A stretch of 64,000 nt of DNA from Glaucostegus cemiculus (Eukaryota), in NCBI GenBank assembly GCA_976551045.1, contig CDPCPM010000011.1:19592001-19656000 (forward strand), in the 5' to 3' direction. A program made the position numbers and the translations under genes. The number at the start of each line of letters is the position of its first letter. Position 1 is the first letter of the stretch. This document shows positions 6,421-45,119 of this stretch, one piece after another. The notes below the pieces were generated by a model, which did no database searches, had not been told where the DNA came from, and saw only the letters and a list, made by a program, of their open reading frames with translations.

Positions 6421-6562
6421 AACTGAAGTTTGGTTCATTTTATTAGCGTGTGGAAGCTAATCTTCAGTTTATCAATGTTCAAACATGTGATTGAGAGGTG
6501 CAGGATTTCTTTTCCTTCAATTTTATTTCTATTGCTACTCTAATTTTTCTCAGTCTTCCAAC

Positions 6563-6628
6563 TGTTATGAAGTAGCTTACTATAGGCTTACTATAGCTTA
6601 CTATTCTTTTGTTGCTGGTTTCGTAACA
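6563..6628 (+). mobile_element. 66-bp internally deleted derivative of the LTR at 26803-27620
   Basis: Begins TGTTATGAAGTAGCTTACTA (20/20 identical to the LTR 5' end) and ends TTCTTTTGTTGCTGGTTTCGTAACA (21/25 to the LTR 3' end). Flanked by 4-bp TSD CAAC at 6559-6562 and 6629-6632. Confidence 0.85.
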
Positions 6629-7949
6629 CAACACAATGAGCAAAATATCTTTGGTGTATGGCCTTTGTTGTGTAAATGGAAGAATCTGAACAAGGAAGGA
6701 ATATTTTACAGAAGTCGTGCTGTTATCATGTTTTATAACATTTCCTGTAACTAGCTTGTTCTACGCTAACAAAATCTGAATTAATGGATTATGAGTAGAA
6801 ACTTTGACAAAATGTCAAGTACTTTGCTGGTACCTAAAAGTAGACAGAATTGAAATGTTATGGCAATTGTTTCATCTAAGTTTTTGACAAGATGGTTTTA
6901 TTCAGAAAATGACATGATTCCAATACCTATTTCAATGGCTCAGCACAGAAAAAGTCAAACTTGAAAACATTCTGACAACTGGCAATCTTGGAGCATACTT
7001 GAATTTCAGCCTTTGTATTATTTTAGGCTCTTTATAAAGTTTGATCAAAATAAATTTTGGGTAACTTTGGCTTGATTAATCTGTAATTTAGAGGACCTTT
7101 CTGATTACTTTTAATGATTAATCTGTGGATTAACTTCAAAAATCTATTTAAAATCATAGCTGTCTCTAGTAATACTGTGACATTGTTTATTTCACACCAA
7201 AAAGGTCTCAAATTCTTAGTTATCTGGCAGTCATGTGAATGAAATGAACTCTAAAGCATACTATTATCTCAGTTTTCAGTTATTGACCCATCACCAAAAA
7301 TAATTTATTGTTTCAAGGCAGGGAATGTTTGTTCATTGTATGTTATTTTAGTTATTGCAGATAATATTAGCCTAAATTAGTCTGAAAATTTAATTTAGTT
7401 AGATATTTTATTAAACAAACAAATGCACCAGAATTTTTTATTGGAAAAAATATATTGAAAAAATTAATCCATTCAAAATTGTGATGGATGATTTAAGAAG
7501 ATGGTTGTGGTAAAACTTCAACTTTGGAGTTTTTGTTCTGGCTACATATATTGTCACCAGTCTGTGTTCTGTAACCAGACAGACCTTGTTCATGATTTAA
7601 ACTATTAATTAAATTAAGCAAATAAATACTTAACAATACAGTTAACATTTTACTACCCATCTCTTAAAAAGGAGCACAAGGTTAGTATTTAATTGCTAAG
7701 TTGATGTATAAATAATTTTATGTGTCTGCAGATTTTTTGTAATCATTTATCTGCTACTGTAGCCAGTTAGTAATAATTGACTGCATCTGAACAATAATCA
7801 AAGGATTATTTGATGCTTCATTTTATATTTCCAAAATTATTGTCAAAGTTTGACTTTCATGATGATTTTTAAAACCTAAAAGTCAATGTTTCTTGAAATT
7901 AGGGGACCTGCTGCCAATATAAATTAAAAAGATACTTTCAATTTGATGT

Positions 7950-26429: not shown

Positions 26430-27685
26430 AATGTTGCATTTCAGAAATACTGGTCAGGTTATGATAGGAGAATGGTGTGGGATGAGGTTGTTATGCCTTG
26501 CCAGAAAGAATACTGTGCTCCCCATCAAGGATCTTGCCAGAGCCAGAGAATTATTATTCTGACAAGAGACTGACTAGACTAGGGTTAATTTATTTGGAAT
26601 AAAAAAGAGGTGCTGTAATTGAGATGTATAGAATTATGAGGGGCCAAGCAAGGGAGGTCAATAACGAGGAAAAAAGATTCAAGTTAATTGATAGAAGCAT
26701 TAGTAATAAATTAAGGAGAAAATATTCACCCAAAGAAGTTTGGAATGCAGGGTTTGGAATGCAATGTCTGTAAAGATGGTGGAGGCAGAAACTTGTATCA
26801 TGTGTTATGAAGTAGCTTACTACTGGCGAATGTCCCTTTAAGATGGGACATTGTGTGTGTATGTGTGTGCGTAACGTATGACGTCAACAGAAGATAAGAC
26901 TAATGTGATGAGGTCATTGGGAGAAAGAGGCAGACAGACAGACAGACTGACAGAGAGGAGAGAGGCACAGCAGCCTGTTTTGTTTCTGTCGATGGATGAA
27001 GGACAGTAACTGTGTTTGTCACTACAATCCACGGATGGATTTCTGGAGTAGTCCCGTGGAGTCCACTTTGTCGGTAACCTGTAGGACACAGGTGTTTGCG
27101 TGGATGACCACATTTTTGGATGCTTTTCAGAGTGGCAGATACTTCAGAACAAAGTGATGGAATTCACTTTGCTGCTAACCTGTAGAAGAACACAGGTATT
27201 TGCATAGACAGTCATGATCCAGGAGTTTTCGGGGTGAGAAAGTCACTACCGAATAAACACTGAAGTGTCGTTTGAGTTCTAAGTGGAACATTCAGATTTC
27301 GTGATTCCCTTCTAAGCTCTCTCTATATCTATGTTTTGTCTTCAGTGGACGGTGCTTGTGAAGAAGCCTTTACTCGTGTTTCATCTTACGGCTTACTGAA
27401 CTGAACTTTAAGAACTAATTCCTGGACTTGGAGTTTAGGAATTTGCCACACACACACGAGTAGTTTTGGGGTTACTGTTCAGGGTTCTAACATTTTTTTT
27501 TGTACTAATATACTAACTTTTTATTCTTATTTTACGTATTATCGGAAGTAGTTATTAATAAAGTAGTTTTAACACTAAATTATGACTTAGTGTGTTTCTT
27601 TTGTCGCTGCGTTCATAACACATGTTTAAAAAGTACTTGAAAGAGAACTCGAAGAATCATAACCTATAAGCCTGTGGACCAAGAG
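26430..27685 (+). mobile_element. CR1 3' fragment hosting the solo LTR
   Basis: The CR1 3' sequence ...gatggtggaggcagaaacttgtatcatg|...|catgtttaaaaagtacttga is continuous once the LTR and one TSD copy are removed. Confidence 0.7.
26803..27620 (+). mobile_element. Solo LTR (818 bp), Gypsy/ERV-type
   Basis: TG...CA termini with a perfect 9-bp terminal inverted repeat (TGTTATGAA/TTCATAACA). 4-bp TSD CATG at 26799-26802 and 27621-27624. AATAAA at 27557-27562, CRE TGACGTCA at 26879-26886. No coding capacity. Confidence 0.85.
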
Positions 27686-30900: not shown

Positions 30901-32050
30901 AGAAGATCTGACAACATTCTGGGTGAAATGCTAAAGAATTGTGCTAAATAACTGGCAGCTACAATGTTAGGATCCTTCTGACAAGTGGGAATTTATCTGG
31001 GTATGTCCTGTCCACAAAAAGTGAAACAAATTCAGTCCAACTAAACTTCAAAAAAAAAGATGAGAGTTGTTGATTTGCAGAGCAGTTGGCAGTAAGTCCA
31101 TTGCTGATCTTTCACCTCACTTCCACTTTATTGCACTTGTCCCTTGATTTCCAATGGACTTCAGAAATCTGTTGATCTCCACCTTGACTATATAGCCCTC
31201 TCTTAGAGAGAATTCCAAACTTTCAGAAACCTAATTTGAAGTGTTTCTTCTTGGCCACATCTTAAATGGTTGACCCCAAATACTGGGACACTCTACTCTA
31301 GTTATGTTCTCTCCAGCCAAGGGAGAGCATAACTAGAGTAGAGTGTGTCTCGGTATTAACCCTGTTAAACCCCATCAGAGTTTTATGGTGAATGAGATTA
31401 CTTGTCATTTTTATAAACTACAGAGCATAGACATTGTCTCTGACCATTTGTCACATTTTTTTCTGTTTTTCTGTATTTTCAAAGTGAATGATTTTGCATT
31501 TGCTGTATTCCATCTGTCACTTTACCACTTATTTCAGCCCCTTGACATGACTGGGGTGTCCCTCAGGGCTATGTCTATGACACAATTATCTTTAAGTTAT
31601 TTCATGAAAAGGAATGCCTAATTTTATTTGTAACCTGGAAAATTTTCAGGCAAGGACTATAAATGGCAAAAAATAGTACATATTTTACATGCTAACAAGA
31701 CAGAGTCAAACCACGTGTACATGATTTTCAACAACATTAAGTTTCCTCCGTCGTTGACCAGCAACTTAACTGGGGTGACTCGCTTCATGCCCACCACCTG
31801 CATGCTGCTATATCATGAAATATTTTCCATTTGTCAGGATGAATGTAACTTCTAATAATATTGAATGGATGACATTATCCATTGCCAAACAGCCTGTTTG
31901 AATTGCAAGCAATCTACTATCCTAAGCATTTACCCTGTCCACCACAAGGCTGCAGTGTGTACCATGTGCAAACTGTACTATAGTAATGACATCTCCCAAG
32001 CTAAGAACCCCTCTGGAAGGATGAAGGCAGCAGATACATGGAATGCTGCA

Positions 32051-39200: not shown

Positions 39201-39637
39201 TAGTTGGTCTTCGGAGGATCCTACGGTTAAAAGCACTAGATTTCATTATAAATAGAAAAATTCCCTGCCTGTATGTTGATTATTGTATGCTAACCATGCA
39301 TTGATAGTACTTCCCTCCTCACCAATAATGCTAACTTTTCATATGCATGTTTTCTAAGATACTAATCTTATTCTGACTTCATTAGTGCAGAATGCTCTTT
39401 ACTTATTTTTGCTTAATTTTTGCAACCAATAGTTAATAGTTTGGCATTTATCATACTTAAAATGTAATTTTCTTCCCTGAATAATGCTGAAGTTATCAAA
39501 TCTACATGAAGAAAAATATATTTGCAAACAAATAATTGTTTTAAATCTCCATTATTGGGACTGAGAAGCAAAAATTAAACATTTTATTCAAAAATTTTTA
39601 CATCTGTGTTAACCACTGTCTGGTCCCCTTTTCTAAG

Positions 39638-42600
39638 CTGGAGCCACCTTTGGCAAGTTCTAATGCCTGGCAACAGCTACAGAAGCTGAACCAGGACCTG
39701 CAAGCTGAGCTGGAAGTCCAACGGCAAAAACAGGAGGTGGCTAATACACAAGCCCAGAGCCAAAAAAAGAGCTACCAGGATGCCAAGGAGCTCTTAAGAC
39801 AACAAGAGGCAAAAATGCAAAATCTTCAGGCCAGACTGGACATTTCTTTGTCAGAGGTAGCCATTAATGAACAGTCATTATCCAAAGCACAAAATGAGTT
39901 GAGACTTGAGCGTCAAAAGTACAAAGAACAAGCTGATGAGTATGAGAGAAAATTAAGTATGTTTAGCACTAAGCTTTGTGAGAGTGAAGAGAAACTTAGA
40001 GAAGTAGAGGGATTGCTTCTCGAAAAGACACAAAGTTTTAGGGATCTAGAAAGGCAAGTGGCTCTTCAGGACAACTATCAGCGAGAAGTGAAGCGGCTGC
40101 AAGATCATCTGGAAGAAACATGCAGTCGGCTACACAGCAGTGAACAGGAAGTTATTCTGAGTGAAGAACGTTTTAAGAAACAGTATGAAGGTCTGAAAGA
40201 AAAGTATGAAAAGGAAAAAAAGCTCTTGTCGCACAATGTACAGGAAGCTGAAGATAAGATCAGAGAATATGAAGATCGCCTACAGACTCTTGAGGCTCAG
40301 TTAGAGAGAGTTCAAAAAGAAAAATTGGCCACTTCCTTCAAAAGCAGTGAGATGGTGAGGCAAATGGAAGAACATGTTGAGATGAGTGAGGGGACAGTTA
40401 AGCGGCTTACCCATGATATAGACATCTTGTCAACTGAGAATGAACGATTAAATCAGCGCTATCAGGAAATAGTTAATCAGTTGACAGAAGCTGACAGAGA
40501 AGTTGAAGGGCTGAAGTTAGAACTGGTAAAGGATCGAGAAAGGTATCAAGACCTGAATGAAGATTTTGAAAAAGCTGTTCAAGAGGTGAATACACTGAAA
40601 AATGAAGTAGAAGAAACCAATTTTAAAATGGTATCAATGAAGAAATCATATGAGAGAGAATTGGAAAAGAAAAATAAGGACTTCAATGAGGCTTTAATCA
40701 AGCTAGAAGCTTTGGGCACCAGCTTGGAGGAGACAGAGAAGAAACTGCAGCTTAAGGAAGCCACACTTAAAGGCCTTGGTTGGCAAGTACCAACAGATAT
40801 TGATATGCTTCTAGAGAAAGAAAAAGAACTTCAAATCAAATTAGAAGAAGCGGAAGCTAGGTTAGCTGAACAGAGCATGAATCTGCAGATAACTGAAGCC
40901 AATTATAAGGGCCTTCTTTCCCAAAAAAACAAGCTTCAATCAGATTTGGAAATTTTAAAGAAACAAAATGAACATGTAACAAAAAGTAATCTTTCAGCAG
41001 TTGAAAATGTTCTTCAGTGCCCCACCACTTGGTCTGAACCAGAGGGAGACCAGAGCGCACGCAGTTCTAGTGTGCAGCTTTCTGAAGAATTGATGGCAAG
41101 GCTTCAGCATTTGGATGGCCAAGTGACAGTACTGACTGGTTCAGTAGTTCAAGCATTTTCTGAAAGTTGGTTTTCAGGGCTACCATCCTCTGAAAATACT
41201 GAAAGTTCTTGTGACTCAACAGTAGTGAATAGTTGCATTACAAACCTGAAAAAATGCCTGGCAATTGTATGCACACTTGAAACTAAATTATTCATAGCAG
41301 AACAAAACATTAACAAGGAAGCTGTTAGTCCTTTAGATACAAGACTCCATTGCGATGCTAAAAACCACGAAGGACTATTGGATCCTGGAGTTCATCCAAA
41401 AGGGAAGGGGTTAGAGAACCAACCATTAACATATTCTTTGTCCGAATATTTCTCCAGTTCAAATATCAAACATAATGTACTGGTCCAGGCTGAATTCCAG
41501 TCACTGCAAGCAAAACTGCTTCATTTACATCACGTTTTGGAAAGTTTACAACAGAAAATTGGTCAACTTGCACAAGAATGGGATATGGGAGAACATGGAC
41601 AATTGCGTGAATTAGTTCATGCATTAGGAGGTTCAGTACAATACTTGCAATGTATGGAAGAAGATTTAGCCAGAAAAAATAGAGTATTTTTTGGTGATGA
41701 ACCTTTAGTAAGAGATTCCTTAACAGAGGAGGAAAAGCTGAAATATTTAGCTGACAGACTTTCGCTTGAAGCAACAGCGCTTAACAATATAGCCAATGCT
41801 TTGCAGAATTCGGACTCCAGTGTGAAAAATACTTTAGATGAAATTAGAAAACAGGGTGAAAATGTTACTATGCCTTTGGTTTCTATGGATGATGTCAGTA
41901 CTCAAATTGGGCATGCTGTTCTTAATAAAATATTTATAGAAGGAGAGTTTTGGGCAAATATGCCTAAAATTCAGGAAGACAAGGTATCAGATGCTGAAGA
42001 GCAAATGAGCAAGCCCATCAGCAGTTACCTAAATATGATGGCAGACAGTAGCTTAATAAAAGGTGAAATATTGTTCTGGGCCCATAATATTTTGGAAATT
42101 TCAAAAGAAAAGCTGCAGCAACTGAAAGCACAGTACTCAAAAATACATCATAGAAGCCAGAACTGTGAACAGATGCTCAGGAATGTTGTAGCTGCGTATG
42201 GCACTTGCCGGCTTGATGAACTGATCAAAGAAATTCGGAATGAATTGAATAAAGATGAAGAAGAAGAATCATTGCTTTTCTGTTCTCAAGCTTGTAGACT
42301 ACCATCAGCATCTAATTCTGCTGATGAGGACTTTGAACTTTGTATAAGGACAGAGTTAGTGCAGCAAATTAAGAAAAATGCTTGCTTGTTGAAGAAAATG
42401 TCACACTGTATTCAATCAAGTGCAGATGATGAATTGGGCCTTCTGGCCAGAAAGTTTGTTCACAGTGTGGATTGCATACCCACATTAAGCAGACATTGTA
42501 ATGCAAAAGATATCTGGCCTTTTCTGCTACAAGATGCAATGATGCAAGCTGAATTGTCATACGTAATCTCCAAGATACAGTTAAAACATGATGTTGTGCA

Positions 42601-43357
42601 AAGTGGGAATAAACAATTGAGAGTGGACACTTTAGAAATGGAGCACTCAAACTCCATTACTTCATTGCAGGGTATGGATGTAGCTGAATTGAAGAAACAA
42701 AAAGAACAGGATATTAAGTTTAAAAAATTCAAAGGGGACCTTGCAGAGTTTAAACAGTCGGATATTTCAGAATCAGGTGCTGCTGCTTGGACAACTCATA
42801 TCCATATTGAGGGAGAACCAATTGACTCACTGGACAAGGCAATTGAACTTCAAGACATGGCAGCAAGGCATAAAAAAGAGCTACGTGAAGTGCGAGAAGC
42901 ATATGAAGCTGAGGTGGAGAAATTGAAAAGGGAGATAGCAAGAGCAGGGGAAACATTAAGGCTGAAAACAGAAGAAAATGTGAAGGAAATAGATTCATTG
43001 ACTATTTGCATGGAGAACTTGAAGGAAAAGCACGTTGAAGAGCTGAAGAGACGAGGAGAAGAATTTAAAATGGAGAAGAGAGAACTGGATAAAAAGTGTG
43101 CTAGGGTTAAAGAAGAGCTTACACGAGAAATTGAAGCTTTAAAAGAATGCAGAGATCCTAAAGAACTGGACCTAGTAAGTGATCTGCAGAGATCAACTGA
43201 CCCATACAGGAAAACAGCAAGTGAGATGCATTCCATGGCCCTGCTTAGAAACCGTATACAAGAGCTGGAGTCCCAGATAGATGCCATGAAAAATAAAATT
43301 GAAGCCAGTCCAACAAATCTGCGTGAGAAATATGAAAAGGACCTGGAGAATCTCAAG
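39638..43357 (+). CDS. MPRIP: Giant 3720-nt (1240-codon) cassette exon of the long MPRIP isoform; coiled-coil rich
   Basis: ccccttttctaag| acceptor in frame with ORF 39650..43486, and AAG|gtgtcc donor after KYEKDLENLK. The N-terminal part (AWQQLQKLNQDLQAELE...LLLEKTQ...LGTSLEETEKKLQLKE) matches the recalled long-isoform exon of MPRIP. Phase 0-0, so skipping keeps the frame. Confidence 0.9.
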
Positions 43358-45119
43358 GTGTCCATGTATTTAATACTGAATAGTAACTGCATGTTGGCTT
43401 GTAGCATTACACCTTGCTGTCAGCAGTTAGCTTATGTTTGTGTTCTGTTATGTGTCTCAATCTGCATGGCAGATAGAATTGCATGATTTGCTATTGGACT
43501 GGGCAAAGTCCTGAAGAGTACACTCCCTAAATTTTAGGGGGATGGTGGAAGGGGACAGATCCTGCAGCTGACAAATATGCTGGATAAATAAGAAACTGCT
43601 GGCATTATATTTGCATAAAAGAATGGATATTGAAGCTGTCTGGTTTTGAGCCAAGAGTTTGCACCCAGAAAAAGTACCTAAAATTTGCCCAGTTCTTCTG
43701 TGTCTGTCTTTTTGAGTTTACTGTGTGCTCTTAAGCATTTTTTTTTCTAATGCAGTAGAACCCATTTATCTACTATTTGTCTGAAGTAGATTTGGTTGAG
43801 TTATCAGAAAGGCTTTGAAGATTTTAGTGTTCTGTTGTATCCTAAAATCAAAGTATTAGAATATCTTTTTCTAATGTATAAACCATTATGACTTTGTTTA
43901 CTGTTGTCCAGCCTTTGGCATTAAAAGATTTTATTCATCGCTTAAGCTTCATTGATTAGGCCATTTTGACTTTGAGTAAATTTGTCAACAAGTAAAACCT
44001 TTACAAAGATGTACAAAAGTCTCTAATTACTCTTGCTTTAACATTTTGTTTTAAATTTCATCCTTATTTTATTAAGATTAAATTTCCTGTTAACATTTTA
44101 TTGATGTGTTCAGGTTCATTTTGAATGCATCGTTTTGATAAGTAATTTATATTTCTGGTGGAACAGTGGGTTCAATTGCATTTGATTAAAAGCATCCCTT
44201 CACAGGAATCAAGCTGTGCTTGGCAATGTAAGTTGGTGACTGTGTTACCTTCAGTGTTTGACCTAATGCTATGCAATTAATATATGAATCTCCTTTTCTT
44301 TTCCTTTCTCTTTCAGCTGGCTACATATCTCTATCGCACCTTTTGAGACATTAATAAACTAACAACTTATTTTGTTTACCAACTGATGTCATAAAGATCC
44401 TTATGTTATATTTTCTATGCAAGAAAAGGTCTCATTTCACATTGACTGTTGAAAGTTTTAAGTTGTCCCTAAAAACTGTGCCTTGGATAACTTGAGGTGA
44501 TTATCTCAATCAAGGCTCTTTTTTGACTGGAGACAGTCAAATTAAACCAGCACGTGCAAGGGAACATTTTTCTCCATGACAATGTTAAAAGTTACAAATA
44601 TCATGAAAACAAAGTTGGTCCCCAATTCAAATCCTGATTATATGGTGTAAGGAGGTGCACTATTATGGATGTTGAACTTAGATAGTGAGAAGAGAAAATT
44701 TCATGGACCTCACTTCTAGTGGCTCTCATTTGAGTCCTTGTAGCAGTATGTGGATGATTGAATCAGTGTGCTGTCATCAGGACTGACTGCTGGACTGAGA
44801 TTAGAGGGCATCTAGGACCTCTGGACTTGACACCACCAAAAAGTCAATGCTATATATTTGTATGTATGCTTGTGTGTGGGTTTGAGGGGGTGGAATTGGT
44901 GGGAGGGAGAGGTATGAGAGCATTGGAAGCTGATGAATTTCAGAAAATGCACTAAGCATAATTATTGAGCTTTATAATGGCAGAAATTACAAACGCACAA
45001 AGGAGTTTATTTTGGGATTAAAATTCAGTAGTTACCAACTATTAAAGAAAGCATTTTAAACTCTTATAAAAGGGAGGTGTTGGCTTCACTATTTCTATTT
45101 TTAAGAGCACGCAGACATT

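Follow-up and report, generated by a model that had tools for sequence, protein, structure and literature searches.

A 66-bp ends-only LTR stub as the probable scar of a Gmr1-like Gypsy insertion in a ray-like genome

The 66-bp element at 6563-6628 of the window, by which we mean the whole stretch of 64,000 nucleotides analysed, is almost certainly the dead scar of a Gmr1-like insertion, a judgement that covers every reading in which it is a scar. Our main reading, to which we assign a probability of roughly 0.55, is that the two integrase ends became attached to the chromosome when the cDNA was broken or unfinished in its middle, and that the stubs were rejoined by polymerase-theta-type end joining. 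The integrase would have held U3 and U5 ends that belonged to one gapped cDNA or to two cDNA pieces, and would have made the 4-bp duplication by inserting both. The host would have resected the cDNA from its free inner ends towards the tips, and slip-back synthesis on the U3 stub, in two rounds, would have led to a 1-nt join to U5. The stub is a derivative of a known family via known kinds of error, and no function is predicted for it. A single stub of 66 bp is of little weight; the family-wide pattern carries nearly all of the interest.

The element lies between two copies of CAAC (Table 1) and consists of 25 nt of U3, 16 nt of filler and 25 nt of U5. It is non-coding, has a 9-bp terminal inverted repeat with one mismatch, and includes a 10-bp tandem (3.1 copies, 6573-6604) that is one among 4 tandem arrays in the window. 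The coordinates, the length, the CAAC duplication and the 818-bp LTR with its CATG duplication were all as a preliminary description of this DNA had given them, and its view that ends of this LTR family are joined here also stood. That description had, however, set the U3 part at 20 nt and derived both ends from the LTR in the window. The first 20 nt are indeed the same as in that LTR, but the last 25 nt differ from it at 4 of 25 positions. Among 70 distinct full LTR copies, exact sister-subfamily matches were found in 14 for positions 7-25 of the stub, in 33 for its last 25 nt and in 11 for both. Because both stubs match the sister subfamily, the native U3 stub is taken as 25 nt, not 20, and the filler as 16 nt. 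The LTR in the window is not the direct parent of the element. Within the window, LTR matches were confined to the full LTR and the two stubs, the latter with E values of 2e-4 and 5e-6; the match between stub and LTR is not due to chance.

Table 1. Positions of the features in the window, and loci of the fold-back LTR units found elsewhere in the genome.
Feature	Position	Strand	Remarks
Left target-site duplication	6559..6562	+	CAAC; single copy in relatives
U3 stub	6563..6587	+	first 25 nt of the sister-subfamily LTR; integrase end TGTTA
Filler piece 1	6588..6596	+	9-nt copy of stub positions 15-23; primer repeat GC
Filler piece 2	6597..6603	+	7-nt copy of stub positions 14-20; primer repeat AG
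U5 stub	6604..6628	+	exact sister-subfamily match to the final 25 nt of the LTR; integrase end TAACA
Right target-site duplication	6629..6632	+	CAAC
Full-length 818-bp solo LTR	26803..27620	+	flanked by CATG duplications; of the other subfamily (90% to copy L025)
Fold-back LTR units			L038, L040, L044, L045, L048, L049, L052-L057, L061
Fold-back LTR units, continued			L102-L104, L107, L115, L117, L120, L122, L178/L179

Elsewhere in the window, an open frame of 1313 aa at 39545-43486 (+) gave a weak coiled-coil Pfam match below the cut-off (16/111 ORFs scanned) and is probably a single, very large host-gene exon. A 24-bp inverted repeat, 96% complementary with its copies 11 nt apart, lies at 31288-31346.

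The empty site was seen in relatives. In contigs of the runs X3, X4 and X7, which represent three organisms from three studies, exactly 70 bases are missing at the site, and 4 letters fit either side. The same stretch is absent from run X6, which came from the same sample as X7, with 10 other letters in between (a diverged local stretch). The comparison rests on these four runs; X5 did not span the site, nor did the two closest runs, X1 and X2. The 66 bp are a true insertion into an ancestral single CAAC. The independent integration claimed in the preliminary description is thereby borne out, and the check it had proposed, for a single CAAC at the orthologous site, gave just that in X3, X4 and X7.

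The filler parses as local copies, in agreement with the templated end joining that had been proposed for it. For piece 1, the GC at the stub end equals the GC preceding the template; for piece 2, the common primer is AG, and the template continues with T, the base with which the U5 stub begins. The junction thus has a nearby-copied insertion, primer repeats (2 nt only) and a created microhomology (the final join is 1 nt), and the filler fits two SD-MMEJ loop-outs, a pattern of several rounds that is described in the available text of PMC2943611. Since the primers are short, the parse alone is no proof, and we infer polymerase theta as the junction enzyme from the form of the junction. The available part of another report (bioRxiv 10.1101/2022.09.25.509424) links alt-EJ to retrotransposon cDNA synthesis and does not describe such stubs.

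The parent family is abundant. A first look gave 8,350 LTR candidates, one 29-nt U3 start has 6,860 exact copies, and U5 ends number 15,528 genome-wide versus 12 for the reversed control. The LTRs begin with TGTTA and end with TAACA, copies have a PPT before the LTR and a PBS after it, and the duplications are mostly 4 bp long. Exact duplications bound 19 of 30 full LTRs; their sequences vary freely, and none is CCGG or CCGT. A minority has 5 bp instead of 4 bp (L007, L015, L026, L057, L076, L084, L095 and L101; 3 of the 19 exact cases among the 30 full LTRs). Paired direct LTRs with PBS, PPT and one outer duplication were found at L063, L064 and L188-L192 and as pairs in the 30-locus sample. 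In the provirus L062, the internal region reads SCAN/CCHC, H2C2, rve, RVT_1 and RNase H, with a CR1 piece interrupting the RT region; the order of the ORF pieces places the integrase upstream of RT and RNase H. Its gag has a SCAN domain (PF02023, E 7.7e-12) plus PF00098. The gag ORF contains a D-T-G motif of the kind seen in proteases, and Pfam gave no protease match; a protease between gag and integrase may be present. The integrase-before-RT order is a defining trait of Gmr1-like elements, according to the available text of bioRxiv 10.1101/2025.03.03.638093. Given the SCAN gag and this order, together with the LTR features, we assign the parent to a putative Gmr1-like Gypsy LTR retrotransposon family. 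On contig C1, the region 0.5-7.7 Mb holds 100 U5 ends in ~7 Mb, well over the genome mean, and many of them belong to ~5 kb proviruses. In segmental duplicates on the same contig (L158 vs. L161/L162 and L174 vs. L181/L182), which share their flanks, one copy is a provirus and its counterpart a solo LTR, an instance of solo formation after insertion.

The preliminary description had left room for a minimal unit mobilised like a MITE, possibly of a Ginger-like DNA element, and had proposed a tabulation of element lengths and target-site duplications. Short ends-only copies (27-177 bp) were surveyed with a U3-anchor/U5-anchor pattern, gap up to 150, whose exact anchors miss diverged copies; the medium bin covered 178-327 bp, and 328-650 bp lay outside the survey. 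The short bin held 27 places: 10 solo copies with an exact 4-bp duplication, including the 66-bp stub; 13 that are one arm of a fold-back unit; two 3' LTRs in proviruses whose 5' LTR is whole; and the two paired 50-bp LTRs of L062. The 22 places of the medium bin represent 19 events, namely 3 solo copies and 1 probable one, 7 fold-back units, 6 one-sided proviruses, and the unclassified L108 and L109, which were kept out of the classes. L033 and L034 (43 and 60 bp, with 4-bp duplications) were excluded from the tests, as their right ends were not assignable to U5. Only the two LTRs of L062 have a junction common to more than one of the 27 short copies.

A DNA search with the 66-bp form found itself and one other stub, L002, and the exact-anchor matches genome-wide contained no second independent site of its junction. 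By the test that the preliminary description had set, the element is a one-off deletion scar with a unique junction. The idea that the 66-bp unit is a MITE-like element mobilised by the integrase of the family or by a Ginger transposase is hardly credible, and we regard it as largely refuted. The stub does have the shape of a MITE, being short and non-coding, with terminal inverted repeats and a target duplication, and its 17-nt filler motif is also present in L002, these being the only two places. L002, however, is 81 bp long with different breakpoints and flanks; common descent of the two was rejected on these grounds, and the common motif fits the same slip recurring. Exact-anchor searches gave no case of one internal structure at many sites. 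Repeated junctions do exist, in a set of six identical palindromes of 76 bp and in another of three identical LTRs of 254 bp, but these share flanks and are segmental duplicates, so MITE amplification was rejected. A TRIM, or mini-LTR retrotransposon, has two short LTRs enclosing PBS and PPT; the 66-bp element is a single stub with host DNA on both sides, and L062 alone has paired 50-bp LTRs. Of the features that the preliminary description had suggested looking for in full-length copies, paired LTRs, PBS, PPT, gag, integrase and RT are present in the family, in place of a lone integrase, and the Ginger-like reading fails on these features. In the available text of PMC2836005, Ginger1 and Ginger2 have TGTNR termini and 4-bp duplications, as this family does. 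Their TIRs are ~40-270 bp (Ginger1) or 50-180 bp (Ginger2), whereas the LTR ends here have just 9 bp in common; their targets are fixed (CCGG/CCGT or RTATAY), whereas the duplications here vary freely; and they have a lone transposase with no RT, unlike L062 with its RT and RNase H.

Fold-back LTR insertions are a recurring class. The 20 units (Table 1) read U3..U5, linker, U5..U3, with two U3 ends, and 16 of them have an exact outer duplication (11/13 short, 5/7 medium). The linkers contain tRNA read-through, poly(A), PBS or internal sequence. All 20 deleted arms continue with 1-3 A and a T, after which 13 depart from the PBS immediately and 7 extend into it. In L056, positions 1428-1500, within the linker, hold most of a tRNA (Rfam tRNA 28.4 bits against a cut-off of 29, E 0.017) with the anticodon TGG, that is, proline. 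This tRNA-Pro copy extends beyond the usual stop of plus-strand synthesis on the primer; shorter tRNA read-through is present in the linkers of L061 and L048. In L040, L053, L055 and L107, poly(T) abuts the inverted LTR at its position 778, which is 22 nt past AATAAA and is the poly(A) site of the LTR. The tRNA and poly(A) linkers can only have come from reverse transcription, and their presence means that the family integrated faulty cDNA. On many occasions the integrase of this family inserted faulty cDNA that carried two U3 ends. Double insertion was rejected as the origin of the fold-backs, as the linkers are without a target copy. Rfam miRNA matches on the fold-back centres were all under the gathering score and reflect the hairpin. 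One of the 10 short solo copies, L050/L099 (G000:C76:4228240-4228410), is a 113-bp stub bounded by a 4-bp duplication of its own; it was inserted, inverted, into another LTR copy on the U5-side, an autointegration-like arrangement.

A U3/inverted-U3 pattern was found at 34 places (L065-L098), 29 of them independent, and 24 of these 29 have an exact 4- or 5-bp duplication. These U3-U3 palindromes are 48-177 bp long and MITE-shaped, and each has its own junction. The U5/inverted-U5 pattern was found at 2 places, neither bounded by a duplication, and U5-U5 units were rejected as a class. For Ty elements, the available text of PMC5371799 reports that the PPT primes repeatedly and that dead-end plus-strand strong-stop DNA builds up in particles. 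In the literature covered by our search, most subscription papers being outside it, we found no description of insertions with two U3 ends as a population within a genome.

Given these classes, the size distribution bears on when the middle was lost. Among the solo stubs that have a duplication, 10 measure 27-177 bp and 3-4 measure 178-327 bp, whereas random breaks within the LTR predict a short share of 0.25 or less (~1:3). The skew of the solo stubs (10/13-14 short) has p 4e-4 or less (10/14: p 4e-4), and that of the fold-back arms, 13 short and 7 medium (13/20), has p 2e-4. The internal control, one-sided LTR deletions in ordinary proviruses, gave 2 short versus 6 medium (p 0.64), as random breaks predict; the size ratios of solo stubs and proviruses differ at p 0.03-0.07 only, on small numbers. 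Background would account for ~1 short solo stub, against 10 observed. The size skew and this low background mean that most short stubs need a route tied to the ends, and, since the solo stubs but not the one-sided provirus deletions are skewed to short lengths, trimming at integration is favoured over later gutting. In the latter reading, a normal solo LTR or provirus was gutted long afterwards by a random double-strand break and end joining, and the spared ends reflect recognition bias. The same SD-MMEJ filler would be expected there, and eight proviruses do have one LTR deleted and the other whole. Moreover, internal joins of similar size occur in CR1 LINEs, and their rate lies within 2-7 fold: with anchors ~850 bp apart and in the short bin only, 5 short joins (4 junctions) were found among ~11,600 copies. 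The 10 solo stubs among ~12,400 LTRs correspond to 1.9-2.3 times the CR1 rate (p 0.18-0.31), or to 2.7-6.6 times if solos make up 70-35% of LTRs (p 0.07-0.0007), both denominators coming from 30 loci of one contig (24/30, 14/30). Since stub sizes are skewed to the very ends, the opposite of the provirus LTRs, we consider the 'gutted in place' account of the preliminary description possible but rather unlikely, and trimming at integration the likelier timing, though timing is less sure than the scar itself. Two CR1 copies on different contigs, L123 and L126, have one internal deletion junction in common over ~400 bp, which suggests a deleted CR1 that was copied.

Two further routes also end in a U3-U5 stub. 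In a fold-back collapse, a palindrome loses the inside of one arm, and the linker and second arm are then lost between 9-bp terminal repeats, leaving U3-U5 with the original duplication. The U5 end and the inverted U3 end do have 9 bp in common, long inverted repeats are fragile (available text of PMC3855049 and PMC8053094), and the arms show the same short skew as the solo stubs. In addition, 13 of the 27 short ends-only LTRs are fold-back arms, far over the likely 4-15% share of LTRs, but that share is a range derived from 1 verified case in 30 loci. The route also requires two events that leave no trace, and we judge it improbable. It is a decidedly slim prospect that a premature jump of RT from U5 to U3 produced a provirus with a mini-LTR at each end, and that the two later recombined to a solo mini-LTR. 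L062 (G000:C50:4238050-4244172) has the expected form, with two 50-bp LTRs of the same junction (2 mismatches), lying at a 6-nt microhomology, and a CTTG duplication; its mini-LTR deletion predates its integration. One deletion is carried in both arms of L102/L103. Recombination between repeats of 40-150 bp is expected to be slower than between 820-bp LTRs, and the single paired case, against 10 solo stubs, counts against this route. RT misalignment has been proposed for HIV LTR deletions (available text of PMC9278108), but the three jumps on 1-2 nt homology in the 66-bp stub would fit polymerase theta better than RT.

Within the preferred reading, trimming and rejoining at integration, the two ends may come from different molecules. 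Short units bounded by duplications number 24 U3-U3, 10 U3-U5 and 0 U5-U5, and these counts fit a random pairing of ends, which predicts 24.7, 8.5 and 0.7 with one fitted parameter. We tentatively raise the possibility, itself on the doubtful side, that Gmr1 integrase in the ray-like germline routinely joins the ends of separate dead-end cDNA pieces (U3-U3 and U3-U5) while polymerase theta stitches the inner ends. If so, the 66-bp stub and the U3-U3 palindromes would form one class, MITE-shaped, each born once and never transposed as DNA. As a set, the stubs and fold-backs preserve, as fossils with normal target duplications, the failures of reverse transcription and integration: copies of primer tRNA and of poly(A) tails, plus strands that folded back, and insertions with two U3 ends. 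If the at-integration reading is true, LTR elements have a way to produce TIR-bounded DNA that looks like MITEs and that annotation would wrongly file under DNA transposons, and the family would offer a testable in vivo case of integrase pairing ends from different molecules.

The parent family resembles the Gmr1-like Gypsy elements (Metaviridae) of fish, with their solo LTRs and internally deleted copies. As in the available text of bioRxiv 10.1101/2025.03.03.638093, it has a SCAN gag, integrase before RT/RNase H, paired LTRs, PBS, PPT, TGTTA...TAACA ends and mostly 4-bp duplications. It differs in that the 66-bp copy retains just 25 bp of each end, and in its many two-U3-end insertions, which are unmentioned in the available part of that preprint. 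The junction shares with loop-out SD-MMEJ and polymerase-theta insertions the overlapping local copies, the short primer repeats on one side of the break and the newly made microhomology (available text of PMC2943611); in contrast to those, it is a germline fossil in a fish-like vertebrate, and the enzyme is deduced.

The fold-back units are like the inverted LTR tandems of Drosophila, which arise by double insertion, in having two inverted LTR copies at one site. According to the available text of PMC5932611, the Drosophila tandems keep the target motif in the junction, whereas the fold-back units have tRNA, poly(A), PBS or internal sequence there and one outer duplication. Aberrant proviruses offer a further parallel: in asymmetric HIV LTRs (PMC9278108) and one-ended HIV/ASLV proviruses (PMC5041404), as far as the available text of both goes, faulty cDNA or integration likewise leaves deleted or inverted DNA, and host repair finishes the event. 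In the HIV/ASLV cases, one end is usually joined by the host, with odd host duplications (PMC5041404), and the 3' deletions in HIV start upstream of the LTR (PMC9278108). In the 66-bp stub, unlike these cases, the integrase ends are exact on both outer sides and the 4-bp duplication is normal.
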